DNA of 64,000 nucleotides, taken from assembly GCA_964418675.1 (NCBI GenBank), contig CAYQMM010000003.1, positions 152,202 to 216,201 on the forward strand, read 5' to 3'. Below the pieces are notes generated by a model, which searched no databases, was not told the DNA's origin, and saw only the letters and a program-made list of their open reading frames with translations. This DNA comes from an uncultured Candidatus Bathyarchaeia archaeon. GTDB lineage: Archaea; Thermoproteota; Bathyarchaeia; Bathyarchaeales; Bathyarchaeaceae. Made by a program: the position numbers and the translations under genes. Positions 762-64,000 of this stretch are shown here, one piece after another; within the stretch, counting starts at the first letter, position 1; every line of letters starts with the position of its first letter.

Positions 762-3700
762 TTAGTCAAAATTAATTTCAGCGTTAAGATAATTTCCAAA
801 TGATGATAGTATGTTGTTTTTTACTTCATCTATTGCCTCATATTTTTTGCAGATTTCTCTTTGTTTATCAATATCATATTCTCCATCATCTTTAATGGGT
901 ATTTTCAGGATAGCTTGTTTCAATATTGACAGTGTTACTCTTTTATTCCCTTCACCGATTGCATAATCTTTGAGAGTTTTCGATAAATAGCGGTGAATAT
1001 AACCAATGTCGATTTGGTCTTCATAGTCGCCTTTTAACAATAAAACGCCACAATGAGTTGTTATGCTAAATTTTCCATTCCTATAGAAGACAGTTCCAGC
1101 ATAAATCCCATCTGTTGTCCACGTAATACATTCAGAATCATAATCGTATGTGTCAATGCACCCAATTACTCCTTCATCAGTGGTTTTAGAAGAATAAACG
1201 GGATATGATCCGCTATGAGTTCTAATGTAATTCAACGTATATTTTGCAGAGCCTTTATGACACTTGAAAAACTTTGTTATGTTTTCCTCTACAAAGTTGT
1301 CTCCAATTTCAAAATCTACAGATGCCGATTCAATTTCATCCTTAATCATTGACAATTTGCTTTTTACTTCTTCAATCTGATCTATTTTTCCAAGAAGATA
1401 TGTCTGATCGTCTAAACTGTAGTTTCCCGTATTATCAACAGGTATAGGAATTGTCAAATCCCTGATTTTGGCAACACCACATTTATTGCTATATAAAAAA
1501 CCCGATGTCAAAAATTTTCTTTCAAGTTGCCATCGCAAATAATCTAAATTCATTAATTTCCCATACTCGTTCTTAAGAAGCATCACACGATGATCATCAT
1601 TTGTAGCAAATCTGTGTTTATGTACAAAAACCCTTCCAACATGAACGCCATTTCTGTTCCAACCTATACAGTCCTCATAGTATTTTATCCCCTGAATGTT
1701 ATCTCGAATTTGACCAATTATTGAGCTTTCATGTTTTGAGCAACCATGAACAGGAACGTCTCCATCATTTTCCCTACAAAACTTTCTTGTTAATTTAGTG
1801 TTGGTTGGTGGAAATTTAAACAAATCACCGATTTTTGCCTGTTTAAACTCTATCTTTTTTTGTGTTTTTTTTAAGGTTCTTAATTTTTCAACACTTTTAG
1901 AAAATACGTCACCTGTGTCTTCAATTTTTTCTATAAATTCGTCTAGTTCCAAAACTTCTGTTTCTTCTTCTATACCAAGATCGATTTTTTCCTCTTTTGT
2001 CCACCAATTATCAATATACCAATACTCCTCTTTGTCAAATCGTTCAATTGGTTGCAGTTTGCATCTTGGATCGCCAATTTCTTTTACTGGAAAAGTGTTT
2101 GGTGAGCCTTTATACGAATTGAATAAATCCTTTGCTTTTTCTAAGTCACTTTTTCCTTCTATTTCAAATCTATAGACATTTAATTGTTCACCAATGTTAC
2201 TTACTAAATAGGTGAATACTGGGAAGTCTTGTTCTTGTTTGGGATTATTCTTTTTTGTTATTCCTAGGATGAATGTTTTTTGTGGTGTATTAAAGAATGT
2301 TTTTGATGGTAAAGATATTATACAATTAACGAAACACTGTTCTCTAATATACTTCCTCAATTCTTTATTTTGTCTAACATTCAAGATGCTGTGAGGTATT
2401 ATTACAAATGCTCTGCCATTACGCCTTAAACTTCGTATTATCCATTCTAATGCTAATCCATCTACGCCTTTGCTACCTGTAGTATAGTAAGCTTGCAATC
2501 CTTCTGTTTTTATTTCTTCTTTTATTGAGGTAACGCCACTTGTTATGTATGGAGGATTTGTTAGGATAAGATCATATTTTTCAGCTTCGTTGGTTATGAT
2601 CCTGTTTAATGTTCCCAAATTTGACTCAGTTAAGAAGTGAAAAATACGATTAAAAAGTGCAGAGAACTCTTTCGTGATGTTTGGATACTTCTCTACAATA
2701 TCTGATAGGTAAATGAGAAGATTAGCTTTAGCAAGTATTATAAGACGTTCCTCATCACTGTCCGAACCTTTATCATAACCCTCGTAGGTTATTGTGGGTT
2801 CTATTTTCCCGTTTTTAGGAATAAAATCTTGCTTCCTAATGGGCTTTTGTATTGTTTCTGCTATGAAGCCACCTACACCACAAAAAGGATCGCATACCCG
2901 TGAACCCTCTGGGAGTTTCTCAACATCAGCCATATCTACAATGGCTCGAACAACTTTTCTAGGTGTGAAAAATTGTCCTAATCTACTCTTATCTGAGCTT
3001 TCTTTAAGAAATGTTTCAAAAAGCTTTGTCTTAAACTCTTTCTTGATATGCCTAAGTGTTGTAAAATTATCATATTTTTTTAGTGTACTTTTGAAAAGAT
3101 TGGCTTGGCTGAAGACAGGGTTACCACTTGCATCTACAAAAATAGTACCATTTATGATGGTTGTTTTATCTTTTCCTTCTGGGAATAGTTCTCTTATTTT
3201 CTTGCGTGTATTTATAGCGTAGTAATTAAGCACATCTTTGTTCTTGACTTTTTGAGCATACATACCATATACAGTTTTGAAGTCATTTGGAACTTTGAGA
3301 ACTTCAAGATCGCTAAGGAATTTAAAGATAAACAGTTCAACAACATTGTACAAGCATTTTTCAGGTTCTTTTCCAGTGTTGATATAAATGTCTTGCCATA
3401 CACCTTTAGCTAAACTTAGCGGATCGACGGTTTCAGTGGGGATTAGTGTAGAATTTTTCTCATTTACTGCCGATAATATTCTATCTACATAATCCAATGT
3501 ATTTTTTGTTGTCTCCGCTAACTTGTCAAAAATAGGCTCGGAAACATCTTGGATTACAAAAGGTTCACTTAAATCTTTTTTATCCTCATTCCTAATGATC
3601 GAATAACTACGTTCAACATTGTACTTGTCTCTGTATGTGTTATTCTTGTTTGATTGTCTTGGGTTTATCCAGATGAATAGTTGTCCATCGGTAATTACGC

Positions 3701-4010
3701 CCATTTTTGAATTTAGAACTTGACAAACATCGTTACATTGTTCTATAGCGCTTTTCTTTTGGGCATCAGTCCTAAACTCTGATGGTTGCTTATATTCTAC
3801 TACAGCGATTACGGTAATGTTTTCTTTGTTTTGCCTATTGACAAGTAAGCCGTCTGGTTTTCGTTGGGAATATCTGCCGTAATCAACATTGGGAATAATT
3901 CGATAATTTTTATACTGATTGAGCGTAGTGTCTTGGGTAGGAAAATATTCAAGATGTCCAATTTTGACACCCGCTTCCGTAAAACCCTTACTTATTAATT
4001 CTTCGCTCAT
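762..4010 (-). CDS. Single-polypeptide restriction-modification enzyme (Type IIB/IIG-like RMS fusion): N-terminal PD-(D/E)xK nuclease, gamma-class N6-adenine methyltransferase, and a C-terminal two-TRD specificity region
   Basis: The 1082-aa ORF carries PDGLL...VVEYK (nuclease), QFFTPRKV (motif X), DPFCGVGGF (motif I, AdoMet binding) and TNPPY (motif IV). About 460 aa at the C-terminus form two similar HsdS-like halves. Confidence 0.8.
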   Translation of the reverse strand: MSEELISKGFTEAGVKIGHLEYFPTQDTTLNQYKNYRIIPNVDYGRYSQRKPDGLLVNRQNKENITVIAVVEYKQPSEFRTDAQKKSAIEQCNDVCQVLNSKMGVITDGQLFIWINPRQSNKNNTYRDKYNVERSYSIIRNEDKKDLSEPFVIQDVSEPIFDKLAETTKNTLDYVDRILSAVNEKNSTLIPTETVDPLSLAKGVWQDIYINTGKEPEKCLYNVVELFIFKFLSDLEVLKVPNDFKTVYGMYAQKVKNKDVLNYYAINTRKKIRELFPEGKDKTTIINGTIFVDASGNPVFSQANLFKSTLKKYDNFTTLRHIKKEFKTKLFETFLKESSDKSRLGQFFTPRKVVRAIVDMADVEKLPEGSRVCDPFCGVGGFIAETIQKPIRKQDFIPKNGKIEPTITYEGYDKGSDSDEERLIILAKANLLIYLSDIVEKYPNITKEFSALFNRIFHFLTESNLGTLNRIITNEAEKYDLILTNPPYITSGVTSIKEEIKTEGLQAYYTTGSKGVDGLALEWIIRSLRRNGRAFVIIPHSILNVRQNKELRKYIREQCFVNCIISLPSKTFFNTPQKTFILGITKKNNPKQEQDFPVFTYLVSNIGEQLNVYRFEIEGKSDLEKAKDLFNSYKGSPNTFPVKEIGDPRCKLQPIERFDKEEYWYIDNWWTKEEKIDLGIEEETEVLELDEFIEKIEDTGDVFSKSVEKLRTLKKTQKKIEFKQAKIGDLFKFPPTNTKLTRKFCRENDGDVPVHGCSKHESSIIGQIRDNIQGIKYYEDCIGWNRNGVHVGRVFVHKHRFATNDDHRVMLLKNEYGKLMNLDYLRWQLERKFLTSGFLYSNKCGVAKIRDLTIPIPVDNTGNYSLDDQTYLLGKIDQIEEVKSKLSMIKDEIESASVDFEIGDNFVEENITKFFKCHKGSAKYTLNYIRTHSGSYPVYSSKTTDEGVIGCIDTYDYDSECITWTTDGIYAGTVFYRNGKFSITTHCGVLLLKGDYEDQIDIGYIHRYLSKTLKDYAIGEGNKRVTLSILKQAILKIPIKDDGEYDIDKQREICKKYEAIDEVKNNILSSFGNYLNAEINFD

Positions 4011-7728: not shown

Positions 7729-9200
7729 CCTAAATCATTCTTGTATAGCAGCCGAATATCCTCGATGCCGAGCTTAAGAAGAATCAGGCGTTCCAAGCCT
7801 CCCCCCCAAGCCAACACCGGATGTTTGATGCCGAGGGGAGCCAACACTTCAGGACGGAAGATGCCCATTCCGCAGAGTTCCACCCAAGTTTTAAGTTCTG
7901 GAACGTAGACCGTGGACTGCATGGAAGGCTCTGTATAGGGGAAGTAGCTGGGCCAGAACTGCACCTTTTTCAGTCCAAGTTTCAGGTAGAATTCTTTGAG
8001 GGTTCCCATGAGGTCTCGCAGGGTCACCTTCCGGTCCATTATTATTCCTTCGATTTGATGGAATTCTGCGAGGTGTTTGTAGTCCACTTTCTCGTTGCGG
8101 TATACCCTGTCCACCGAGAAGACTTTGACGGGTGGTTCTTTATGTTCGGACAAGTAACGGATGGTTGTAGCCGTTGTGTGGGTTCTCAGCAGCAACCGCT
8201 TAGCCTCTTCGGGACTCCAACTGTATTCCCAGCCTCTGGAGCCTGTTTTCCAGCCATCCTCATGGGTCTTAGAAACAGCTTCAACAACCTCTCTTTCAGG
8301 TAGTGTTCCCTTATTTGGTTGTGCTAGGTAGAAGGTGTCCACCATATCTCTGGCAGGGTGGTCTTGCGGTTGGAAGAGTGCATCAAAGTTCCAGAAGGCA
8401 GTTTGAACTATGGAGCCACGAATCTCAGTGAAGCCCATCTCCAAAAAGATTTCTCGGACTCTCTGAATTATCTGCTGGGCAGGATGAATCTTCCCTGGAT
8501 AAACTGGAGGTCCAGGAGCCTTCACGTTGAAACGTCTAAGCTTCACTTTCCTCCATCCTCCACTTCTGATGAGTTCGGTGGTTAGTTGGCTGACCTCTCC
8601 AGAAACTTCAATTCCCTTCTTAACTAGACTCCAGCCTTCATCAGTCAACTCTAATTCTCTCAGAGCCTTCTCCTCAATTTCCGCGAGCCTCCGCCGCTTC
8701 AGAACAGAAACAGCCTTCTGCAGTTCTCTGTTAAGCTCCTCAACTGTCAGGGATTTCTTTTCGGCTAGGAGACGCAGAAGTTTTTCATCCTCTCCCAGAG
8801 GCGGTTCCCTCAAAGATTTCAGTTTGCCTTGCTTGATGGTTGCCCAGCCCTTACGATTAAGCCACCCCAAGGCGACTGATAGAAACTTTTTCTCTAAGCC
8901 TGCTTCTTCAACAACATAATTAACTGGGGCTTCGCCGCCAAGCTTGATTAACGCGTTCTGTAAACGTCGTTCGGGAAGACCCTCTTCTGAATGTTGGGTT
9001 CCCTCTTCAGTTAATGAAATCAATGATTGCTTTTTTTCATGTGTTACTAGGAGTTTCTTTTCTGAGAGGGAGAGGGCAGCCCGCATAACTGCCGCGTCAG
9101 CTAATCCGCTGATTTGCACTATCTGGTCGACAGGGGCTCTTCCTTTCAGCTTTTCTAGGGCAAGCAAGGTTTTCTGTTCATTCTCTCGAAGTTCAGCCAC
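7695..9200 (-). CDS. pheS: Phenylalanyl-tRNA synthetase alpha subunit
   Basis: The 501-aa ORF has class II motifs in its C-terminal catalytic half (FQPQDHPARD, RTHTT, GMGIFRPEVL, AWGGGLERL) and N-terminal winged-helix repeats. Confidence 0.92.
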   Translation of the reverse strand: MAELRENEQKTLLALEKLKGRAPVDQIVQISGLADAAVMRAALSLSEKKLLVTHEKKQSLISLTEEGTQHSEEGLPERRLQNALIKLGGEAPVNYVVEEAGLEKKFLSVALGWLNRKGWATIKQGKLKSLREPPLGEDEKLLRLLAEKKSLTVEELNRELQKAVSVLKRRRLAEIEEKALRELELTDEGWSLVKKGIEVSGEVSQLTTELIRSGGWRKVKLRRFNVKAPGPPVYPGKIHPAQQIIQRVREIFLEMGFTEIRGSIVQTAFWNFDALFQPQDHPARDMVDTFYLAQPNKGTLPEREVVEAVSKTHEDGWKTGSRGWEYSWSPEEAKRLLLRTHTTATTIRYLSEHKEPPVKVFSVDRVYRNEKVDYKHLAEFHQIEGIIMDRKVTLRDLMGTLKEFYLKLGLKKVQFWPSYFPYTEPSMQSTVYVPELKTWVELCGMGIFRPEVLAPLGIKHPVLAWGGGLERLILLKLGIEDIRLLYKNDLGWIRRTPVCQR

Positions 9201-9306
9201 TGACTATTCCTCCGTGACACTCAGGTTGCAACCTGTAATGGTGAACTTGGTTTAGCTTTATGACAAGAAGGCTTTAAAGGTTTCAACGTCAGTGATGGCT
9301 TTAGTT

Positions 9307-10419
9307 CTAGTTAACGCCTAATATTTCTCTTGCTTTGTCAACCTGTTTCGTTCGTCTTTTCTGATGGTCCTCAATGAATTTCAGAACTATCTCTTTTGTG
9401 CAAGCCTTGTGTTCCCCACATAAGAGCTTTCCACATTTGCAGTCGTTGTACACTTTCACCATGTAGTCGTCGTCATCAACGAAGTGGCACATCTCAATCT
9501 CGTAAATGGGACAGATTTCAGGCACTCCACCCAGCTTTCTCTGCTCCTCCACAGTGGCTCTTCCGCCCGTAAAGGCACTAGATATCTTCTTGGCTATGGT
9601 TTTGGGGCTCTCGTTCAGGGTAAAGTAGCTCATGGGATTCCGCTTAGACATTTTCGGAGAACCATCCAAGCCCTTCAGAATCTTGTGGTAAGTGGAGGAT
9701 GGAGGGATGAACTTGAATTTGCGGCGGAACTTGTTGGCTAGGTCTCTGGTTAAACGGAGGTGGGCGTCTTGGTCTACTCCTACGGGAACCACTGTTGGTT
9801 TGGGTCCCCCGAAATCTTTGAGTTGAGGCATAAGGATGTCTCCCGCCTGCACAAGGGCTGAGAGATAGAGTCCGATGTGCCGTTCTCCGTAGATGGCTTT
9901 CATCGTGGCTAAGGTCACGCCAGCCCCGAAATGAACTGCTAAGTCTCTGACTCGCAGCTCCTTATACTGCCTGTAAATGTGACCGTTTTTAGGGTCAAAG
10001 CCTAACGCTAACAGGTCTGCGACATTGCCGACAGCGATTTTCTCGGTCTTCTCGAAGGGCAGTCTGTTGTCTTCGTAGGCTTCGATGTCTGCGATGGCGT
10101 AGAAGGCTTTGGCTCCCTGCTGCTGGAAATAGATGATTTCCCGCGCGGTCATGAGGGTTCCTAGATGGAATTCGCCTGTGGGTTTGATGCCGCTCATCAC
10201 CGCAAAGTCTCCGCCCTGCTTCATCGTTTCTAGGACGCGGTCGAAGTCTCTGTGTCCGAAGATGACGCCTCGCCGCATATACATGCTGGGGTTCGGTATC
10301 TCTGGCAGAAGGGGCTTAAACTTTTGTATGCCGAATTCATCGTAGAGGTGGTCGTAGTCCTCAACCACCGTTGCTCCCCAAGGGTCAAGCACGGATTTTT
10401 TATCCTTAACATTAGCCAA
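9307..10419 (-). CDS. trpS: Tryptophanyl-tRNA synthetase (archaeal/eukaryotic type) with a Cys-rich C-terminal segment
   Basis: Motifs are DPWG..., GIKPTGEFHLGTLM (HIGH-like), VGVDQDAHLRLTRD and KMSKR (KMSKS-like). Six Cys residues fall between residues 303 and 340. Confidence 0.88.
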   Translation of the reverse strand: MANVKDKKSVLDPWGATVVEDYDHLYDEFGIQKFKPLLPEIPNPSMYMRRGVIFGHRDFDRVLETMKQGGDFAVMSGIKPTGEFHLGTLMTAREIIYFQQQGAKAFYAIADIEAYEDNRLPFEKTEKIAVGNVADLLALGFDPKNGHIYRQYKELRVRDLAVHFGAGVTLATMKAIYGERHIGLYLSALVQAGDILMPQLKDFGGPKPTVVPVGVDQDAHLRLTRDLANKFRRKFKFIPPSSTYHKILKGLDGSPKMSKRNPMSYFTLNESPKTIAKKISSAFTGGRATVEEQRKLGGVPEICPIYEIEMCHFVDDDDYMVKVYNDCKCGKLLCGEHKACTKEIVLKFIEDHQKRRTKQVDKAREILGVN

Positions 10420-10552: not shown

Positions 10553-11461
10553 GTGACTATGGCAGTCCCTGAAGAAGATTTACAGAAATATCGGCGTGCC
10601 GGAAAAATCGCGAGGGAGGTTCGGGAAGAGATTAAGAGAACTGTCAAAGAAGGAATGCCTATCATTGATGTTTGCGAGAAGGTTGAGGAGTTAACCAGAA
10701 AGAAGGGGGGCAAACCAGCTTTTCCATGTAACGTCTCAGTTAACGAGGTTGCTGCCCATTACACATCTCCCCCCAAAGACAAGCAGACTATACCTGAGAG
10801 GTCCATAGTTAAAGTAGACATCGGCGTTCATGTTGACGGTTACATAGCCGACACAGCCACAAGCGTCTGCTTCGACCCAGAATACGTTGACATGGTGAGC
10901 ACGGCGGAAGAAGCCCTAGAAAAGGCTGTGGAGCTGCTTCGACCCGGACTCTCCATAACCCGCTTCGGCTCGGCAATTCAGAAGACCATCAAGACCCGAG
11001 GATTCAAGCCCGTCTCAAACCTCACCGGACACCTCATCAGACGCTACATAATTCACGCGGGAAAGTCTCTGCCCAACGTCTTAAGCCTCTCCGCCTCCAG
11101 AATAAAGGAGGGAGAAGTCTATGGGGTTGAACCCTTCGTAACAGTTGTTGATGCCGCTGGCAGAGTGGAGAACTTGCGGGAAGCCCACATCTTCCGCTAC
11201 GCTAAACACAAGTCCCTGAAAGACCCCTACGCCAAACAGATTTTGAATTATATCAGGAAGAATTTTTTGACGCTGCCTTTCACTGAGAGGTGGCTGAGCA
11301 GATTCTCGTCGTCCGATGGCTACAAAAACGCCTTCTCTGAGCTTCTCTCATCCAAAGCTGTTGTAGGCTACCCTGTCTTTGTTGAAGCAAGCAAAAAACT
11401 TGTGGCACAAGCAGAACACACGATTATGATTGTTAAAGACGGATGTGCAGTATTAACCTGA
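10553..11461 (+). CDS. map: Methionine aminopeptidase, type 2 (archaeal)
   Basis: AGKIAREV..., FPCNVSVNEVAAHY, VKVDIGVHVDGYIADTA and AQAEHTIMI show the typical MetAP2 metal-ligand pattern in about 300 aa. Confidence 0.9.
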   Translation: MTMAVPEEDLQKYRRAGKIAREVREEIKRTVKEGMPIIDVCEKVEELTRKKGGKPAFPCNVSVNEVAAHYTSPPKDKQTIPERSIVKVDIGVHVDGYIADTATSVCFDPEYVDMVSTAEEALEKAVELLRPGLSITRFGSAIQKTIKTRGFKPVSNLTGHLIRRYIIHAGKSLPNVLSLSASRIKEGEVYGVEPFVTVVDAAGRVENLREAHIFRYAKHKSLKDPYAKQILNYIRKNFLTLPFTERWLSRFSSSDGYKNAFSELLSSKAVVGYPVFVEASKKLVAQAEHTIMIVKDGCAVLT

Positions 11462-14155: not shown

Positions 14156-14280
14156 GGGGTTGCCAGCTTTCCCGGGTTCACGTGGCCGAAGACCACACTA
14201 GCACCAGGAACGGAGCGTGGTTTAACTTCTGAGTTCGGAATGGGATCAGGTGGGTCCCACGCCCTATGGCCGGCAACCCC
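14156..14280 (-). rRNA. rrf: 5S ribosomal RNA (stand-alone)
   Basis: The reverse strand reads GGGGUUGCCGGCCAUAGGGCGUGGGACCCACCUGAUCCCAUUCCGAACUCAGAAGUUAAACCACGCUCC...CCCGGGAAAGCUGGCAACCCC. The termini are complementary and the conserved CCGAAC...GAAGUUAA core is present. Confidence 0.92.
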
Positions 14281-16598: not shown

Positions 16599-16752
16599 TG
16601 GTCGGGCGGGCGGGATTTGAACCTGCGACAGTCCGGTTTCTGTACGCTTGATAGGCTGGGTGATGCCCACCACCGGGTAGGCGTCTACAGCGTCTCCGTC
16701 AGCTTGGAAGTCAAGCTGGCTCGGAAGCTCTACCAAGCTGAGCTACCGCCCG
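16599..16752 (-). tRNA. tRNA-Tyr(GUA) with two insertions in the anticodon arm (30 nt at 31/32 and 47 nt at the canonical 37/38 position); CCA is encoded
   Basis: The reverse strand reads CGGGCGG-UA-GCUC-AGCUUGGUA-GAGC-U-UCCGA-[30 nt, genome 16691-16720]-CUGUAG-[47 nt, 16638-16684]-A-CCGGA-CUGUC-GCAGG-UUCAAAU-CCCGC-CCGCCCG-A-CCA. C1:G72 plus A73 is the archaeal Tyr identity set. The anticodon GUA is at 16686-16688. Confidence 0.75.
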
Positions 16753-20582: not shown

Positions 20583-20671
20583 GGGCCGGTAGTTCAGTCT
20601 GGTATGAATGCCGCCTTCGCAAGCACAGCAGAAAGAGGCGGAGGTCGCGGGTTCAAATCCCGCCCGGTCCA
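20583..20671 (+). tRNA. tRNA-Ala(CGC) with a 14-nt canonical intron
   Basis: GGGCCGG-UA-GUUC-AGUCUGGUAU-GAAU-G-CCGCC-UUCGCA-[AGCACAGCAGAAAG]-A-GGCGG-AGGUC-GCGGG-UUCAAAU-CCCGC-CCGGUCC-A. The G3:U70 alanine identity pair is present and CCA is not encoded. Confidence 0.9.
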
Positions 20672-20918
20672 CTTTGGAATGCTCTCTGTTTATCTGTGTG
20701 TTTTTTGAGAAAAAGCCTGTTTTCAACAATACGCTGTGATTAGGCTCCAAATATGTTTGTTATTTCTGCTTAATTTCTTGTTTACTGGAACTCTTGTAGC
20801 CATAATAGGTGGAAATAAAGGTGGAATATTGACGAAATTGGTGATAAATACGAAAAGGTTTTTAGTTCCGTTCTATAACAACACAGACAAAACGTAGTTC
20901 ATATATGAGGTGAAATGA

Positions 20919-29261: not shown

Positions 29262-30079
29262 GCGTCTTCGAAGGCTTCAAATTCAGGAAAGTCTCTTCTG
29301 CCATCCACAGGCTGGACCCAAGAATCAAATTTTTCTACGTTATCGTCTTGTTTGTGATGGCGATTCTATTCACCAAGCTGCTGGCACTGATTGTCCTATT
29401 CTTCGTACCCTTGCCCTTCGTTTTTATGGCAAGAGTCAAACGAGAATGGCTGCGTTCCCTGAGAGGAGCCGCATTCTTAGCTATCTTCATCTTCGCAACA
29501 AACTTCATCTTCGGATACTTCTATCCAACATCATTCACGGAAATAACTCCCCCCGTTGACACAATCGGAGAGATTCTTGTTCTTTTGGAGCGAGCCTCAG
29601 CCATGACTCTACGTTTCGTCGTTCTAATTGCATCCTTCTCCGTATTCTTTCTAACAACTTCGCCTGACCATCTAGGCTTGGCGCTACAGCAGAGTCACAT
29701 TCCCTACGAGTTTTGTTTTGCCTTCACAACTGCGGTTCGTTTTGTCCCTGTCTTGGCTGACGAGGCGCAGACCATCATGGATGCTCAGAAGGCTAGAGGA
29801 TTGGAGTTGGAGCGTGGAAACTTTCTTAAACGGGTGAGAAACTACATTCCCATCCTCATTCCGCTGATTGTTAATGCCATCAGAAGAAGCTTGGAGTTGG
29901 CGGAGGCTATGGAGTCTCGGGCTTGGGGTGCCAGCGAAAAACGCACAAACCTCTACGTGCTCAAACTTAAACGGGCAGATTACCTCCTCGTCCTGCTTTC
30001 TGTTCTGATGCTGATCATTGCTGTTTACGTCTGGCTATACGTCCCCATTCCCACATTAACAACACTTCTTAACCTCTAA
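29258..30079 (+). CDS. ecfT: ECF transporter transmembrane component T (CbiQ family)
   Basis: This 273-aa polytopic membrane protein follows the two ATPases and carries the conserved ARG...E region (MDAQKARGLELE). Confidence 0.85.
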   Translation: MSVFEGFKFRKVSSAIHRLDPRIKFFYVIVLFVMAILFTKLLALIVLFFVPLPFVFMARVKREWLRSLRGAAFLAIFIFATNFIFGYFYPTSFTEITPPVDTIGEILVLLERASAMTLRFVVLIASFSVFFLTTSPDHLGLALQQSHIPYEFCFAFTTAVRFVPVLADEAQTIMDAQKARGLELERGNFLKRVRNYIPILIPLIVNAIRRSLELAEAMESRAWGASEKRTNLYVLKLKRADYLLVLLSVLMLIIAVYVWLYVPIPTLTTLLNL

Positions 30080-30196
30080 ACCCTCTCCAAAGCTAATTTA
30101 CACTGCAAACAGAATGTTACACTCAAAAAACATGTTTAATCCCCAGATTTGAACGGCAGCTCAAATCAACAATATCTAACGGAAGTTTCCTTCGGA

Positions 30197-30292
30197 TTAT
30201 TTGGTCTTCTTTCTTCGTCTCTGCCTCTTCTTCTTAACCCGCTTCTGTTTCTTCTTAGCGGTCTTTTTTGTCATGCCGTGATGTCTTGCCAT
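30197..30292 (-). CDS. Possible 31-aa extremely basic peptide
   Basis: My own translation is MARHHGMTKKTAKKKQKRVKKKRQRRRKKTK. It is below the track threshold, has no homology support, and is reminiscent only in composition of L41e-type peptides. Confidence 0.25.
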   Translation of the reverse strand: MARHHGMTKKTAKKKQKRVKKKRQRRRKKTK

Positions 30293-30385
30293 TCTAGTCC
30301 AGTTTCCTTCCACATTAGTCTAAAGTGTGATTCTTAAAGTTTTACGTTACCATCCTTGCGGCGATTATTAAAGCTTATTTCACCC

Positions 30386-30453
30386 GGTTCTGTAAAGTCT
30401 TCGGTTGATGGCATGTTTTGAGAGGGCTGTAAAAAATCGGTTGATAGAACTTT
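30386..30453. repeat. Left terminal inverted repeat (68 bp) with an internal CGGTTGAT duplication
   Basis: ggttctgtaaagtcttcggttgatggcatgttttgagagggctgtaaaaaatcggttgatagaacttt. Confidence 0.9.
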
Positions 30454-30535
30454 GCAGTGGACATGCTACGAAGAGCCTCTATACCTTTCTAATCGGTTTT
30501 ATATAGCGAGTAATGAAAGCATTTAACGGTTTAAA

Positions 30536-31021
30536 ATGTCTGAAGATGAATCCACAAAAGAAATGCTCAGTAAAATAGCTTCAAAAGTATCTACATTTGC
30601 AATTGGAAACTATATTCAACCTATACATAGCTTGAAGGACAGCTTAGAGAATCATGATTGGTTTAAGGGGTTAATTCTGTCTACGACTTTCTTAGAGATG
30701 TTTGGATTCTTGAGCTTAAGAACATATTATGAGCAAAACGTAGACCGTGAACACCATAAAAAAATCGGAGAATTCCTTTATCGTTCTGGACTAGCACGGA
30801 TAATAACGTTATTGTATTTCTCGGGTTTAATAAAACGTGATAGCTATACCAAAATGATTGAAATTAACAAAGCAAGAAATGAAATAGTTCATCGTGTACG
30901 AAGAATAAAAAAAGATGAATTTGCTTTTGACGATGAGATAGATATTAAATTTGAGAGAAAAGCAAAAAAACTGATTAAGCAGACAATCATATGCCTCAAA
31001 GAATTGGGAGTATCTCACTAG
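30536..31021 (+). CDS. HEPN-motif protein (predicted RNase-type toxin/effector), cargo of the TIR element
   Basis: The 161-aa ORF looks all-helical and carries an R-x4-H motif with the typical Asn after Arg (KARNEIVHR, R114...H119) in the C-terminal third. This is motif-level evidence only. Confidence 0.5.
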   Translation: MSEDESTKEMLSKIASKVSTFAIGNYIQPIHSLKDSLENHDWFKGLILSTTFLEMFGFLSLRTYYEQNVDREHHKKIGEFLYRSGLARIITLLYFSGLIKRDSYTKMIEINKARNEIVHRVRRIKKDEFAFDDEIDIKFERKAKKLIKQTIICLKELGVSH

Positions 31022-31131
31022 ATGAACTAGACCATATAATTCCACATTCAAAAGGAGGAAAAACCGAACTTCAAAATGCACAAATTACCCATAAATCCTG
31101 CAATGCCCAAAAATCCAAAAAGACACCATAG
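30991..31131 (+). pseudogene. HNH (His-Me finger) nuclease core remnant or mini-ORF overlapping the end of the HEPN gene
   Basis: My own translation in the other frame is MPQRIGSISLDELDHIIPHSKGGKTELQNAQITHKSCNAQKSKKTP, showing the DH...N...H..CN pattern. The N-terminal CxxC half of a normal HNH domain is missing. A 1-nt frameshift within 30979-31018 would fuse it to the HEPN ORF. Confidence 0.45.
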
Positions 31132-31218
31132 ACTCTTCGTGAAAATGGCAACAAAAGGCAACTCTACAGTATCTTCATCCACATCTTTTTATGTCCAATC
31201 CTGAATAAAGATAGATTT

Positions 31219-31713
31219 ATGGCATCAGACGAACAAAACAAATCTCTATTGGTACAATACCGAGAATGTTGGGCAGAGATTAGAAATTTAGATACTTTAA
31301 TTTGGCAAATTCCTTCAATAGCCATGGCAATTAATTCTTTTTTTGGGATTGCCTATCTCGGTTATGCAAAAACCCCTGAGGCAAGAATGATACTATTGTT
31401 TGCATCATTCGCATTCAATTTTGTTTCCATTATTACACTAAGAAAGCACCGTTTCCTTCAGATTGCTCGCACAGAGGATTTGATATGGGTTCAAGAAAGA
31501 TTGAGACAAACCGTAAAAATACGGAATATAAAATGGCAAACAGCACTGATTCTTTCAGATACAGAACAATATCGTGATGTCCCGAGAGACGGAATGATAG
31601 GCATTTCAGCATATCGATGGTTACTCGCTGTACTATGTTTAACATTAATTGTTATTACTACCGTACTAATGGTTGAAATACTTACTTTCTATTTTACATT
31701 TATTCTAAACTAA
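31219..31713 (+). CDS. Multi-pass membrane protein, cargo of the TIR element
   Basis: The 164-aa ORF has hydrophobic segments IPSIAMAINSFFGIAYLGY, MILLFASFAFNFVSIITL and WLLAVLCLTLIVITTVLMVEILTFYFTFIL. Its stop codon lies 2 nt inside IR-R. Confidence 0.55.
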   Translation: MASDEQNKSLLVQYRECWAEIRNLDTLIWQIPSIAMAINSFFGIAYLGYAKTPEARMILLFASFAFNFVSIITLRKHRFLQIARTEDLIWVQERLRQTVKIRNIKWQTALILSDTEQYRDVPRDGMIGISAYRWLLAVLCLTLIVITTVLMVEILTFYFTFILN

Positions 31714-31779
31714 AGTTCTATCAACCGATTTTTTACAGCCCTCTCAAAACATGCCATCAACCGAAGACTTTACAGAACC
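31712..31779. repeat. Right terminal inverted repeat (68 bp)
   Basis: It is the exact reverse complement of 30386-30453. Confidence 0.9.
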
Positions 31780-32011
31780 TTTCACCCAATGAAGCAGCTG
31801 AATAAACTTGTTCCCTGTTTCGAGAACATCCCTCAGAAGATTCAGTTATTTTTGTTGTCATCTGCCTTGATTAAGCGTCCAGTGTTTCGTGAGGCTGTTT
31901 CAGAGTCGCTCCATTTCATCATCACGTTAAAGCTCAGAGCGGTGTCCCTCATCACACAATAAACGTCTTACATGAAAGTTTAAAACCTTATCCTCAGGTT
32001 CCGATGCTCAG

Positions 32012-59238: not shown

Positions 59239-59297
59239 CCAAAGCACTCAAAAAACCTTGAATCCGCCATCCAAGGCATTATACTTTTTTATAGCTT

Positions 59298-59320
59298 AGA
59301 ATGCGCGCGCATTCTTTTTC
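59298..59320. terminator. Perfect 18-bp palindrome followed by a T-run; possible bidirectional terminator or protein-binding site
   Basis: AGAATGCGCGCGCATTCT at 59298-59315, then TTTTC. It lies between the nifU-like and macro-domain genes. Confidence 0.3.
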
Positions 59321-59417
59321 AAATTGGCAACTTGTTTTCTCTTCTTTTCGAGTTTACAGGAGCAGTAAGAGCTAAAATCTGCTCGCACCAATATTATCTC
59401 TGTGGAGAGGTTGAAGT

Positions 59418-59798
59418 ATGCAGGTTAAGATTAACAAGACTTTCTTGGAATTGACTCAGGGAGACATAACGGACCAGACTACAGACGCCATAGTTAACGC
59501 TGCAAACACTGCATTGCAGCTCGGCGGCGGAGTAGCAGGAGCCATCAGAAGAAAAGGCGGACCAAAAATCCAAGAGGAATGCAACAAGATAGGGGGAACC
59601 TATGTGGGCGGAGCAGTGATAACAACCGGAGGAAACCTTAAGGCAAAATATGTTATCCACGCTGTCGGTCCGATTCATGGAGACGAACATGAGGATGCAA
59701 AACTGAAAGATGCAACCCTAAACTCCCTGATTTTGGCTGACAAAAAGAATCTGAAGAGCATAGCCTTCCCAGCCATAAGCACAGGAATCTTCGGATAA
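59418..59798 (+). pseudogene. Macro-domain (ADP-ribose binding/hydrolase) gene, 3'-truncated
   Basis: [21 protein letters not shown]...VIHAVGP...[12 protein letters not shown]-stop. The ORF ends inside the second conserved phosphate-binding loop (normally ISTG[IV][YF]G[YF]P followed by roughly 40-60 more residues). Confidence 0.7.
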
Positions 59799-59851
59799 TT
59801 GTGTTTCTAATCCGAGAATCCCTTTATCAAAGGTCATATTTAAGCTCTCTC

Positions 59852-60778
59852 CTACATCATGAAGGCATAGCCGACCGTAGCCAAGAATATCAGTAACATC
59901 AAAAACATAAAAGCCAACTGTGCAACCTGCGCACCGCTAAGTTCTGGTTGCTCTTGCTGTCTCTCTCTCCTTACAAAAGGCTTTGCTGGAACCAAGTTAG
60001 GCTTGCTGTTTGACCTGAACACTCCCGTTTTTATCAGCTTTGTTTCTATCCCTTTGTCATAGAAGAACTCACCAAGTCTAAGGCTTTGAAGCTGTCTAGC
60101 CTTCTCACTTCCGATATAGTTTGAAACCTTCTTTAGGTCGTTCTGTCCGTCCATTCGACTAAAATATCTTTGAAAGCTAAGCTCGAAAACTGAGGTATCA
60201 GTTAGTGCTGCCCTCTGAGTTATAGCGATGTAACCAAGTTTGAAGTTTCTTCCTGCACTCAGCAACCTAAGCAAATACTGAGCTTCATCACTTCTAAGCT
60301 GCCCCTGAGGTATCAAACTTTGAACCTCTTCAAAGACGTAAACGATTGTTTTCCGCTCTTCTTCAGGAATTCCGATTTGCCGATTCCATTCACTCTCTAA
60401 AAGCTTGGCTATGAACTCCTTCGCAATTTTTGGAGTTAACCGACTCAGGTCAAAGACGGCACTATCGTAAATACCAACATTAACTAAAGCATCAATGCCT
60501 AACTCAAAAACTCTGGGAATTGAAGACTTTAACCAAACTCGACTGATGTCAAAGACTTTCACGATTACGCCTTTTCGCATCAGCTTATCCGCTATGGTTA
60601 TGGCTAGGTTGCTCTTTGCTGTCCCTTTTCCGCCACATATGAAAACACCAGAACGCAAAGCCTCTTCAAAATCGATTTGAAGGTTAGAAGGTTCTTCTAG
60701 TTCACTTTCATCAATTAAGCTTAATCTTCTAGCTTCTTGCTCAATGTAGCTTCTGAATTCCGAATCCTCAGATTGCAT
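59852..60778 (-). CDS. P-loop NTPase with a C-terminal transmembrane helix (HerA/FtsK/Zot-like in architecture)
   Basis: VFICGGKGTAKSN (Walker A variant), TIVYVFEEVQ (Walker B) and the C-terminal VAQLAFMFLMLLIFLATVGYAFMM. Confidence 0.65.
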   Translation of the reverse strand: MQSEDSEFRSYIEQEARRLSLIDESELEEPSNLQIDFEEALRSGVFICGGKGTAKSNLAITIADKLMRKGVIVKVFDISRVWLKSSIPRVFELGIDALVNVGIYDSAVFDLSRLTPKIAKEFIAKLLESEWNRQIGIPEEERKTIVYVFEEVQSLIPQGQLRSDEAQYLLRLLSAGRNFKLGYIAITQRAALTDTSVFELSFQRYFSRMDGQNDLKKVSNYIGSEKARQLQSLRLGEFFYDKGIETKLIKTGVFRSNSKPNLVPAKPFVRRERQQEQPELSGAQVAQLAFMFLMLLIFLATVGYAFMM

Positions 60779-61251
60779 CAGTTCCCTTCTAGCTTCTTCA
60801 TAGATTCCCGATTCCTTCAGTTCTTCGACTTCAGGGTTTATTGAACTTACGCTATGGTTTCTGCCGTGATAAATCGCAAAAGCTCTTTCAATTATGTCAT
60901 TCTGTGTTGGTGTTGTCGTTTTTCTTTTCCTCCATTTTTGTTTTAGACAAGTAAAATCTAGCCTTATTTGCTTATAAGCCTTACGATTTGGCTTCTAAAT
61001 TGAAAAATAACACCATTTCAGGGCAGAACATTAATAAGCACCGCAAATCAAACCGTTTTCAGGTTCCCAGACTTTGAACGAGAAACCCCTTCCCCAGACC
61101 GACAACAGACAAGCCACGCAGACCATAGAAGGAGAAAGAAGGATGAAGCTAACCCGACCAATCGAAGGAGAAACCGCAAGACCTGAAGACCATTGAGAAA
61201 CTTTTGGCGAAAACTAAGGGATGGGAGGGGGACAGTAACTAAGCCTTTTCT

Positions 61252-61827
61252 TCACTCTCTTTTTTCTTGTTCCAACCTAGAAGTTATATAGTCAACTAAT
61301 CTTTCTAATTTCTCATACCTTTTTTGTTTAATTTGTTCATCTACCCAAACCAGTTCGGAACCTAATTTGAGTAATATAACCTCAGGGTCATTGATTATCT
61401 TCTTTTTACCAGAAATAATCTTTCCTTTCCCGTTTGTAAACGTTTCCTGCAAAACCGTAGTTCCATCAGGATAATCTAAAGCGTGTGTTACACGGTAAAC
61501 ACCAGAATAAGGTTTCTTCCTTGACGACAAACTCGTTTTCCGAAAATGAACATCTTTAGGAACATGCGACATAGCATTTAAGATTAGATCATAATAATAA
61601 CTACCATTATCAGAATCCCACTTTTGAAGCAAACGCAAGTCAGACCTAAACCGATTAGTCAATGCAGGTAAATCCTCAATTATCCTTTTAATCCGAGAAT
61701 CATATTGCCAATGCTTATTCATCAACCCATTCTTTTCCGCCTCTTCGGCAGCTTCAATATTATCTAAAAATTTATCCCTTCTAAGGATGTATTCCTTCAA
61801 AACAGGGGAGATAAAATTACCCTTCAT
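61252..61827 (-). CDS. Hypothetical protein (mobile-element module)
   Basis: A 191-aa ORF with no motif that I recognise. Confidence 0.4.
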   Translation of the reverse strand: MKGNFISPVLKEYILRRDKFLDNIEAAEEAEKNGLMNKHWQYDSRIKRIIEDLPALTNRFRSDLRLLQKWDSDNGSYYYDLILNAMSHVPKDVHFRKTSLSSRKKPYSGVYRVTHALDYPDGTTVLQETFTNGKGKIISGKKKIINDPEVILLKLGSELVWVDEQIKQKRYEKLERLVDYITSRLEQEKRE

Positions 61828-61908
61828 CGCTTGTTCGCCTTATAAAAAATTGTAAGGCTAGCCTATAAAGATTACCTCACAATTCTATAATTGCTATGGT
61901 GAGTTAAT

Positions 61909-62184
61909 ATGACAACAACCATACAAATAAGTGAGACCAATAAGAACCGCCTCGAGTCAATTTTGAAGAAAACGGAAACTTTTGACTTCGCTATCAGCGT
62001 GTTACTCCTTTGTTTTGATAAACCCCGTTTCGCCGCAGGTGACATACTAGGTCGTGGACGCACGGTTTACCCAAAATTCCCAGATGAAGAAATTGCAGAA
62101 ATCAGGCAACAGCTAGGGAAATATGCCGAAGTTGAACCCCTCAAAACGGCTCAAGAAATCCGAGCGGAAACCAAAAAGAAGTGA
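61909..62184 (+). CDS. Ribbon-helix-helix-like small protein
   Basis: The N-terminal TIQISETNKNRLESILKK is a typical RHH beta-strand plus helix start. Confidence 0.45.
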   Translation: MTTTIQISETNKNRLESILKKTETFDFAISVLLLCFDKPRFAAGDILGRGRTVYPKFPDEEIAEIRQQLGKYAEVEPLKTAQEIRAETKKK

Positions 62185-62194
62185 GGAAACCAAA

Positions 62195-62503
62195 ATGACC
62201 GATGTAAAAACCACAAGCGAGCGACCCATCAAAGACGACATAGGCACAGCTTACGGCTTAGGAGCCGTTCAGGCTATGAACGAACCGCTTTCACAGGACG
62301 AGAACTGGACTACCGCTCATAATGACCGAGATGAAGCGCATAGGATTGCCCTAGCGGAAGAAGACAAACACTATGCTCAAAATCACCCCGACCCAGAACC
62401 ACCGATTGAAATCTTTGAGACACCAGAACAGCCAACAAACAACCGTGCAGACGTTCAGGCAGCCATGCGGCGCAACCTAATCAATCGAAGGAGGCGCAAG
62501 TGA
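62195..62503 (+). CDS. Hypothetical acidic protein with a basic tail
   Basis: I moved the start to the ATG at 62195 (MTDVKTTSERP), preceded by GAGGAAAC. The track start at 62123 overlaps the previous gene. Confidence 0.4.
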   Translation: MTDVKTTSERPIKDDIGTAYGLGAVQAMNEPLSQDENWTTAHNDRDEAHRIALAEEDKHYAQNHPDPEPPIEIFETPEQPTNNRADVQAAMRRNLINRRRRK

Positions 62504-62865
62504 TGGACGACCGCACCATCGCCAAAATAAACGCAGAAGTTAGAGAAATGCTGAAGAAACAAAAAGCCGCAGGTGGTGGACGAGCAGCCAGAGCAAGATT
62601 TTTGGCGATGAACGCAGACCTTGAAAAAAACCCACGTGCCCTTCTTGACATAGCTGAATCCACAATTCCCCCCGAAGTTAAACAGCATGAGCAGCAAATA
62701 TATGATGAAAATGAAGAAGCCATGCTTGTCCAAGCTGTCCAACAGAGTGGTAGCAACCCCGCAGCTACAGCGAGTTTCTCCCACTTGGCGAAATTTCTAG
62801 CTGAGAGATACGGCGAGGGAGCAATGGAAAAAGCCCGAGAGCTTTTAGGAGCAGACCAACAATGA
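62500..62865 (+). CDS. Hypothetical protein
   Basis: A 121-aa ORF with an ATGA overlap on both sides. Confidence 0.4.
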   Translation: MMDDRTIAKINAEVREMLKKQKAAGGGRAARARFLAMNADLEKNPRALLDIAESTIPPEVKQHEQQIYDENEEAMLVQAVQQSGSNPAATASFSHLAKFLAERYGEGAMEKARELLGADQQ

Positions 62866-63383
62866 GCAAACTTAAAAATCCGTTCGCAGACCCCACGAAA
62901 CGCCATGTTCTACAGGGCGACTTCATCGGTTCCAAAGAATGGCACCGCAGAGCCACTTTTGAGGAACAGATCATAGCTTACTGTCTTGAAAAAAACTTTA
63001 GTGCTGAAGACTTCATCAAACATTTCAACGAAAACATCGCTCCGTCGCTCGCCAAAGTCTACAAAAATCGTGAGGAACAAAAAAAGAAGCTCAGGGAAGA
63101 ATGGAAAGAAAAGAGGAGAATTTCTGAACTGCCCGAAAATTATCTGCCACAGATTTTCCTAGCAAGAAAACACGCCCCGCAAAAACTGAACGAGACCATA
63201 CAAAAATACACACTAAAGGACTTCAGGAAGGTGCATCAGAGAGCAATAAATGGAGACTTCGACAGCCTACTTGGCATTTCAGCTTTACCGTTTATTCAAT
63301 GGCTAAACATGGTAATCCAACAGAAACAAGCAAAACCCGCATCTACAAAACAAAAAATCTTAAACACCCTCAGAGGTCACTAA
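62862..63383 (+). CDS. Hypothetical protein
   Basis: A 173-aa ORF that is translationally coupled to its neighbours. Confidence 0.4.
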   Translation: MSKLKNPFADPTKRHVLQGDFIGSKEWHRRATFEEQIIAYCLEKNFSAEDFIKHFNENIAPSLAKVYKNREEQKKKLREEWKEKRRISELPENYLPQIFLARKHAPQKLNETIQKYTLKDFRKVHQRAINGDFDSLLGISALPFIQWLNMVIQQKQAKPASTKQKILNTLRGH

Positions 63384-63384
63384 C

Positions 63385-63756
63385 ATGCTCTACGGCGACA
63401 CAGTAATCCTCCTAGACGACATATCAAGCGGATCAAGCGTAGTCTACAGCAAATCCGTTAATGTCAAGGACTTCAGCAAACTACTACTCCACTTCAAAGA
63501 AGGCGGCTATAGCAATGTCGAAATAACCGTTTATGCCCGCCTCAAAAAAGACGTGGATAACGCAACGACATGGACAACCATCCTAGCAGCAACGCTTCTA
63601 TCTAGCGGCGGAACTGCCATTCTTGTTTCTGGTAGCTTAACTGGTGCGACTCAGGTGGAACTTCTTGATGAAGTTTGGGACGAAATCCGAGTGGGAATCA
63701 AAAACAGCGGCGGAACAGGAAACGTCAAAGCTTACATCTCTAGGCGAAGACGATAA
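63385..63756 (+). CDS. Hypothetical beta-rich protein (possible structural protein)
   Basis: The 123-aa ORF has alternating hydrophobic patterns (VEITVYARL, AILVSGSL, IRVGIKN, VKAYIS) and an RRRR tail. The structural role is inference only. Confidence 0.35.
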   Translation: MLYGDTVILLDDISSGSSVVYSKSVNVKDFSKLLLHFKEGGYSNVEITVYARLKKDVDNATTWTTILAATLLSSGGTAILVSGSLTGATQVELLDEVWDEIRVGIKNSGGTGNVKAYISRRRR

Positions 63757-63770
63757 CGGAGCCACAGCCA

Positions 63771-64000
63771 ATGCCCGCCAAATACTACAGACCCCGCATC
63801 AAAAACCCCCCTAACATAGACTGGCAGCGGCTACTCGCTCTGGTTGCCATTTTAGAGGACACCACCAAAGCCGAAATCGTGACCCACGCCATCGCTTCAT
63901 ATTCAATTTGCAAACTAGATGACCACTATCTCGACAACCCAACCACCTTTAAAAAGGAAATTGAAGCGGAACTCGAAAAGCTACAAAAAGAGTTTGAATA
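63771..64000 (+). CDS. Hypothetical protein, 5' part (runs off the right edge)
   Basis: My own translation is MPAKYYRPRIKNPPNIDWQRLLALVAILEDTTKAEIVTHAIASY..., RHH-like, and the frame is open to the window end. Confidence 0.35.
   Translation, partial: MPAKYYRPRIKNPPNIDWQRLLALVAILEDTTKAEIVTHAIASYSICKLDDHYLDNPTTFKKEIEAELEKLQKEFE

Follow-up and report, generated by a model that had tools for sequence, protein, structure and literature searches.

Why does a macro-domain gene in an uncultured Bathyarchaeia archaeon stop inside one of its own catalytic loops, at the very point where the neighbouring gene content changes? The question arises in a 64,000-nt stretch of genomic DNA (hereafter the window, meaning the whole stretch that was analysed), for which a preliminary description made from the letters alone had proposed that a mobile element is inserted in the gene. 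Archaeal integrative elements usually target tRNA genes. We therefore asked whether the gene is truncated at all, where exactly its similarity to intact relatives ends, what lies beyond that point, and which kind of event best accounts for the join.

The macro-domain gene is cut in catalytic loop 2

The ORF at 59418-59798 (plus strand) encodes 126 residues ending in GIFG, followed by TAA. It matches the Pfam Macro family (PF01661) with an E-value of 3.2e-37 over profile positions 1-108 of 118, and the NCBIfam O-acetyl-ADP-ribose deacetylase models over positions 4-127 of 173 (NF001664, E 1e-40). Both the NAAN motif and loop 1, GGGV(A/D)GAI, are present, as are all the other motifs quoted in the preliminary description; what is missing is a complete loop 2, G(I/V)(F/Y)G(F/Y)P, together with the C-terminal strands and helices, leaving the ORF 51 residues shorter than its orthologues (a macro domain is normally ~170 aa long). 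The end coordinate originally given for this feature, 59851, proved to be the last base of a 53-nt spacer ahead of the next gene.

Comparison with uninterrupted orthologues places the cut precisely. Full-length orthologues of 176-183 aa share 88-95% identity with the truncated ORF, and among the 120 closest homologues listed (87-100% identity, all Bathyarchaeia), 114 run 50-57 residues past G[IV]FG, continuing as FPKDRCATIMLSTT... or FPKDRCATIML.... The other six comprise two proteins ended by contig ends, two of 177-183 aa missed by the motif scan, and two that stop at GIFG, namely the window's own protein and one other, P0012. We additionally scanned one genome per GTDB species in Bathyarchaeia and found the macro C-terminus at 27/27 species-representative loci, 26 of them full length (166-179 aligned residues) and one, L029, lacking its 5' end at a contig end. 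Because the homologues and all 27 species loci reach the C-terminus, the truncation in the window is real and exceptional. The Pfam match, the GIFG-TAA ending and the longer orthologues thus bear out the proposal that the gene is cut in its second catalytic loop, and on its sequence we regard the ORF as a gene fragment and not as a functional member of the macro-domain family.

Host synteny ends at a single nucleotide

Upstream of the cut, three syntenic relatives (L003, L005 and L006) carry the same gene order as the window—ThiS/Urm1, an unnamed gene, S17e, TatD, OsmC, NifU and macro—at 82-87% nucleotide identity. The blastn similarity to all three stops at 59794-59796 and nothing rightward matches them, base 59796 being the last that the window and the intact genes have in common. 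In the relatives, macro codons 127-177 continue and are followed by a GNAT acetyltransferase gene on the opposite strand and then by a histone gene; in blastn comparison with the relatives, neither the macro 3' fragment nor the GNAT nor the histone gene was found anywhere in the 64-kb window. The abrupt downstream change of gene content noted earlier is therefore confirmed by where these matches end, and the downstream genes are not in synteny with those of the relatives. Rfam detected no RNA gene near the junction.

The junction is also spanned by L001, a 1.6-kb Logan contig from the same sequencing run (SRR14802574) that ends 22 nt past it. Because this independent assembly agrees letter for letter with the window across the break, the join cannot be put down to an error in assembling the genome.

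The host side differs among relatives in one further respect. A 1.4-kb amino-acid-kinase gene lies between NifU and macro in L003 (8452-9894) and L006 (~8200-9570) and is absent from both the window (cf. 59275-59364) and L005, and this amounts to a host indel directly upstream of the target gene.

Elsewhere in the window, a 1082-aa ORF at 762-4010 (minus strand) combines N6_Mtase, an Eco57I-type methylase and two type I specificity (Methylase_S) domains; this fused restriction-modification enzyme sits in a block of GC 0.34 and is probably a horizontal acquisition. GC is also low (0.36) at 30000-32000, where two ORFs (161 and 164 aa) have no Pfam match. Rfam finds a 5S rRNA gene at 14158-14277 (minus strand) and a 151-nt tRNA at 16602-16752 (minus strand), presumably with a long intron, that ARAGORN missed; ARAGORN places a 90-nt tRNA-Arg(CCT) at 20583-20672.

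Occupied and empty versions of the same site

We found the same junction in a second host, on a contig from a JGI metagenome (L002): both sequences read GGAATCTTYGGAT up to the break and AATTGTG after it. The macro genes of the two hosts are 84% identical at the nucleotide level, and the protein from L002 is P0012, which is 91% identical to that of the window and likewise ends GIFG-TAA. Homology carries on past the break for ~55 nt (L002 1034-1083, corresponding to window 59797-59849), with a 1-nt indel between the two arms near the junction, before the sequences diverge. The preliminary description had reasoned that relatives ending naturally at this position would speak against an insertion; the only other protein that ends there carries the same insertion.

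An intact counterpart of the second host's allele comes from a sister sample. P0012 is 100% identical across its 126 residues to P0019, an intact protein of 176 aa, and L002 is 100% identical over 440 nt, through GGAATCTTTGGAT, to the sister-sample contig L043. Directly after GGAATCTTTGGAT the two contigs part, L043 reading TCCCAAAGGAGAGG..., which is macro codons 127 onward and is followed by the GNAT and histone genes, and L002 reading AATTGTGATTTGAATCC..., which is element sequence. L043 is the empty site and L002 the occupied site, forming a textbook pair.

The two occupied sites do not appear to descend from one insertion. Two intact proteins, P0002 (95% identity) and P0003 (94%), are nearer to the window protein than is the occupied allele P0012 (91%), and intact alleles lie closer to each of the two hosts than the hosts lie to each other. 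Because the intact P0002 and P0003 are the closer to the window gene, the insertions in the window and in L002 are best explained by two separate events that hit the same nucleotide.

The target is a palindrome in the coding sequence

In intact relatives the break falls inside a perfect inverted repeat with a 4-nt centre, GGAATC-TTYG-GATTCC in L003 and L005, made up of the codons of G-I-F-G-F-P. The empty site in L043 has a 7+4+7 version, GGGAATC-TTTG-GATTCCC, so that the repeat spans 16-18 bp across intact relatives. Palindromes of the 6+4+6 type occur at 0.16-0.39 per kb in these sequences, which puts the probability that the junction lies inside one by chance well below 1% (the figure rises to ~4% if any spacer of 0 to 8 nt is allowed). 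Across the 25 species loci tabulated, 21 of which have G[IV]FGFP, the exact palindrome is kept only in L003 and L005, the two closest; elsewhere it has been lost by synonymous changes, which may limit the host range of the element.

These features suggest a route by which the join could have formed. We infer that strand exchange would take place in a central overlap of ~7-8 bp (~TCTTYGGA), and exchange at the edges of this overlap would explain why attP/attB identity ends after GGAT, within the right half-site. Under this scheme attB would be GGAATCTTYGGATTCC, and attR would pair a core copy, ...TCTTCGGAT, with macro codons 127-177 followed by the GNAT and histone genes. By the same reasoning attR would lie ~5-10 kb beyond 64000, and further still if two elements stand in tandem.

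The element arm next to the att site carries two additional copies of GAATC(C), at 59808-59821 (within 37 nt), which we conjecture to be recombinase-binding sites. Just past the ATPase stop, at 59833-59844 on the minus strand, is the motif TTAAATATGAC, conserved in L002 and in L041 and present as TTAAATAT in L039 (two contigs with related elements, described below); it may be a TATA-like promoter facing the att site.

Gene content of the inserted block

Some 4.2 kb of the element lie inside the window (Table 1). A 5.1-kb Logan contig, L004, is 100% identical to window positions 60982-64000 and reaches 2.1 kb further, for 6.3 kb of readable sequence in total. It takes the element at least to ~66080 and adds a 99-aa Cys-rich ORF and a 561-aa Walker-A/winged-helix protein.

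Table 1. Features at the junction and in the part of the element that lies inside the window (strand "." denotes no strand).
Feature	Coordinates	Strand	Remarks and basis
Macro-domain gene, 5' fragment, YmdB/MacroD-type	59418..59795	+	Codons 1-126 of ~177; host DNA; Pfam, NCBIfam, orthologue identity
Putative attL core, GGAATC-TTCG-GAT	59784..59796	.	Left half-site, spacer and first 3 nt of right half-site
TAA stop made at the junction	59796..59798	+	T from shared core, AA from element; identical in L002
Element arm adjoining the att site	59797..59851	.	Homologous to L002 1034-1083
Terminal FtsK/HerA-superfamily ATPase with C-terminal transmembrane helix	59852..60919	-	Annotated ORF 59852-60778, 308 aa
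191-aa ORF	61252..61827	-	Weak homology to the 201-aa ORF of L039 in the same position (tblastx)
Four small ORFs (91, 102-126, 121 and 173 aa)	61909..63383	+	Weak tblastx colinearity with L039
123-aa ORF, predicted all-beta sandwich and basic C-terminal tail	63385..63756	+	AlphaFold single-sequence model
76-aa ORF running to the window edge	63771..64000	+	Overlap with L004

The gene nearest the junction, whose 3' end faces it with 53 nt between stop codon and junction, encodes an ATPase with 31 homologues of 343-376 aa among 5.8 billion proteins. Both the alignment and the sequence show the family homology running to 60919, beyond the annotated ORF; at the family start (60917-60919, minus strand) the codon is ACG instead of ATG, and hence the annotated ORF starts 47 codons later. 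Because this start codon reads ACG, the element may be decaying and may have lost the ability to excise. P0272 is a further ATPase of this kind, with 94% identity overall, rising to 100% in the last 162 residues, and an intact ATG. It is recorded on an NCBI contig of 220,895 bp, exactly as long as the window's own. On the simplest reading it would belong to another related element on that contig, possibly in tandem, and such a copy would account for the break in the Logan contigs between 59818 and 60982.

Similarity searches divide the likeness of this ATPase between viral packaging NTPases (B204) and plasmid translocases/HerA (TcpA). It matches phrog_2666, labelled 'terminase large subunit' in PHROG, at E 1e-11; a PDB profile search returned HerA at E 1e-4 and STIV B204 at E 0.15; and Foldseek with a pLDDT-65 model returned HerA, STIV2 B204 and TcpA at E ~2e-4. 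Its tblastn matches were all DUF87 genes of haloarchaeal plasmids (25% identity), with no virus among them; tblastn against phages gave one weak Pseudomonas match for the 561-aa protein and none for the ATPase. It shares the fold class and the Walker A/B motifs of HerA, the STIV2 genome-packaging NTPase B204 and the pCW3 coupling protein TcpA at a marginal level of sequence likeness, and differs from all three in a family-specific helical N-terminus of ~70 aa and in its C-terminal transmembrane helix.

Most other ORFs of the element match no family in Pfam, PHROGs or NCBIfam. The 191-aa ORF has no match in Pfam or PHROG, and the four small ORFs beyond it have no family match; the 561-aa protein matches HTH_33 below threshold and found nothing in the PDB profile search. 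The model of the 123-aa ORF (pLDDT 58.6) matches generic jelly-roll structures only, at E-values of at least 9e-3, a weak hint that the protein could be capsid-like. Viral contigs scanned with the ATPase, the arm pattern, the 561-aa protein, the macro C-terminus and the junction pattern gave no match. In a metagenome scan, one contig (L038) matched the junction-arm pattern and was rejected as a chance match on a bacterial contig.

Related elements and the likely recombinase

We next compared the block with relatives found through its ATPase, which is the last gene of related elements wherever the context is known, with its 3' end toward host DNA. Among relatives on long contigs, L039 (9.8 kb) is the closest, and it is colinear with window 59852-64000 and its extension in L004. 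The ATPases of L039 and the window share 64% identity by tblastn (61% when the 308-aa ORF is compared by BLASTP), and the 562-aa Walker-A and winged-helix protein of L039 is 74% identical to the 561-aa protein. A 13-nt direct repeat, of a length reached in 0/300 shuffles, has its copies 18 and 47 nt from the two ends of L039 and is flanked by an imperfect inverted repeat. L039 also encodes, at 96-1316, an unsplit 406-aa tyrosine-recombinase-like protein that matches NCBIfam XerA at E 1.9e-7, below threshold; an R..K..HxxR..W..Y motif is readable in it, as are the segments GLRASDF, RFHQLRVF and SAYVKP, and a PDB sequence search gave no match. Of the ATPase relatives on short contigs, the nearest (L041) has no macro gene beside it.

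L039 further carries a SIR2_2-domain gene at 2619-3728 (Pfam E 8e-10), possibly NAD-consuming defence cargo to judge from its domain; the gene is notable in that the window element targets a gene for an ADP-ribose hydrolase.

More distant members of the family sit in tRNA genes. The 10.1-kb element L033 has at its two boundaries an exact 52-nt repeat that covers the 3' part of tRNA-Thr (copies at 1154-1205 and 11248-11299), and its PF16795 integrase is split into Int(N) at 11034-11318 and Int(C) at 1177-2046. In L032 a tRNA-Leu follows directly after the ATPase and host genes come next, as they also do beyond L033. Many PF16795-family integrases in the databases begin with tRNA-encoded peptides such as VGRAGLEPATF or MNPRPTAYKA.

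The readable 6.3 kb of the window element (window plus L004) contain no integrase homologue of either type, and no PF16795 homologue was found in the window or in L004. Among at least 120 proteins from a search seeded with the L033 integrase, none has an N-terminus encoded by the macro antisense strand and none comes from the window's contig; P0218, an integrase candidate from Logan, proved unrelated. We rejected a split SSV-type integrase at the window junction because the frame of the short ORFs that cross it differs between the window and L002, so that no conserved Int(N) frame crosses. The earlier suggestion of an SSV-type integrase thus describes the distant relatives, which are split and sit in tRNA genes, but not this junction or L039, whose recombinase is unsplit and XerA-like. 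By analogy with L039, the window element would be ~10 kb long and its recombinase, a tyrosine recombinase comparable to the 406-aa protein, would lie at the right end beyond 64000, with recombinase and attR near 69000-70000.

A probable integrated element and its alternatives

We put a probability of about 0.85 on the reading that a mobile element of ~10 kb has integrated in the macro-domain gene by site-specific recombination. The insertion first proposed from the letters alone is upheld by the empty-occupied pair L043/L002, the exact break at 59796, the recurrence of the junction and the colinearity with L039, whose boundaries are defined.

It is very unlikely that a one-off illegitimate recombination or deletion fused foreign DNA to the macro gene, with the 3' fragment lost and no far att site. 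The right end does lie outside the readable sequence, and the mutated ATPase start codon would fit a decaying remnant; yet a single accident sits poorly with a breakpoint that falls within a perfect palindrome and recurs, at the same nucleotide and with a homologous arm, in a second host whose empty allele is 100% identical, and related elements have clean direct-repeat boundaries.

The odds are slimmer still for a target-specific transposon, casposon-like or Tn7-like, that made a target-site duplication here in place of integration by a tyrosine recombinase. Although the 13-nt repeat of L039 is within the size range of such duplications and the integrase of the window element lies outside the readable sequence, a tyrosine-recombinase-like protein is encoded by L039, which lacks Cas1 and DDE genes, and the inverted repeat around its direct repeat resembles that of an attP core. 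The distant family members, moreover, have SSV-type integrases, a 52-nt att site and tRNA-gene locations, and the window junction has no evident terminal inverted repeat.

An assembly chimera of host and foreign contigs is hardly credible: the genome was assembled from a metagenome and the run's Logan contigs break off 22 nt past the junction, but L001 crosses it with identical sequence, the same junction exists in another sample and host (L002), and the 94%-identical ATPase copy, apparently on the same contig, better explains the break. That the lineage naturally makes a short, 126-aa version of the protein, for which a second 126-aa protein (P0012) in the database might speak, has next to no chance of being right and is already refuted by the 27 species representatives, in all of which the gene reaches the C-terminus, by the foreign sequence that follows the stop of P0012 as it does here and the intact, 100%-identical allele of P0012 (the P0012/P0019 and L002/L043 comparisons), and by the position of the stop within catalytic loop 2.

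Comparison with known systems

Integration in protein genes has archaeal precedents. Of 68 thaumarchaeal elements, 14 are reported in protein genes, in 3'-distal regions (PMC6563490; PMC8371274 section 19), among the genic cases NitEve-E2 in a Zn-finger protein gene (Krupovic et al. 2019, PMC6563490), and section 19 of PMC8371274 gives further archaeal genic targets. As these sources describe them, the thaumarchaeal elements resemble the integrated element in the window in having a short att site and a protein-coding gene as attB (PMC6563490), in supplying a new stop codon, and in having been validated by empty and occupied sites in close relatives. The window differs in host phylum, its host being a member of Bathyarchaeia, and in the depth of the cut: where the thaumarchaeal insertions are described as 3'-distal, this one falls at 71% of the gene, in a catalytic loop, with 51 residues (29%) lost. 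A macro-domain gene is not among the targets quoted from PMC6563490 and from section 19 of PMC8371274. The 2021 review of archaeal tyrosine recombinases asks whether genic att sites show dyad symmetry (PMC8371274), an open question there; at the window site such symmetry is plain. The landing site is a clear case of an archaeal element in a protein gene, but not an unprecedented one, and the noteworthiness that the preliminary description attached to it should be toned down, given the precedents in PMC6563490 and PMC8371274 section 19.

SSV-type (type A) elements, such as SSV1 and the deep-sea 'suicidal integrase' elements (PMC7253208), are matched by L033 and L032: the split integrase and the 52-nt att site over tRNA-Thr are seen in L033, and a terminal ATPase stands beside a tRNA gene in both. 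The window element differs from this type, since its target is no tRNA gene and no conserved Int(N) frame runs over the junction. Among bacterial systems, phiSa3int in hlb of Staphylococcus aureus (PMC6597384, PMC12607152) likewise inactivates a protein gene by site-specific integration, and with such prophages, known as phage regulatory switches or cases of 'active lysogeny', empty and occupied alleles also coexist in related populations. The window element, in contrast, is small, has an archaeal host, and is known from sequence and not from regulated excision.

Implications

While the element is resident, the truncated host protein is almost certainly inactive, because 51 of ~177 residues are gone, comprising half of catalytic loop 2 and everything beyond it. 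Could the element then act as a reversible switch, an archaeal counterpart of bacterial 'active lysogeny' that silences an ADP-ribose hydrolase and restores the gene by precise excision? We consider this unlikely; the coexistence of empty and occupied alleles with 100%-identical flanks is compatible with such a switch and with simple recent insertion to an equal degree. If the switch were true, silencing of the hydrolase could matter for antiviral signalling based on NAD or ADP-ribose, a setting in which the SIR2-like gene of L039 would also be of interest.

To our knowledge, Bathyarchaeia mobile elements have hardly been characterised. The locus described here offers a nucleotide-precise target site in a protein gene, complete with an empty-site control and dyad symmetry, and points to a family of elements of ~10 kb marked by a terminal membrane-anchored FtsK/HerA ATPase. 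Members of this family with differing integrase modules, SSV-type in tRNA genes and XerA-like at other sites, illustrate the modular exchange of target specificity. For the host, the occupied genomes represent a natural loss-of-function allele of a conserved macro gene, which can be used to probe the role of that gene.
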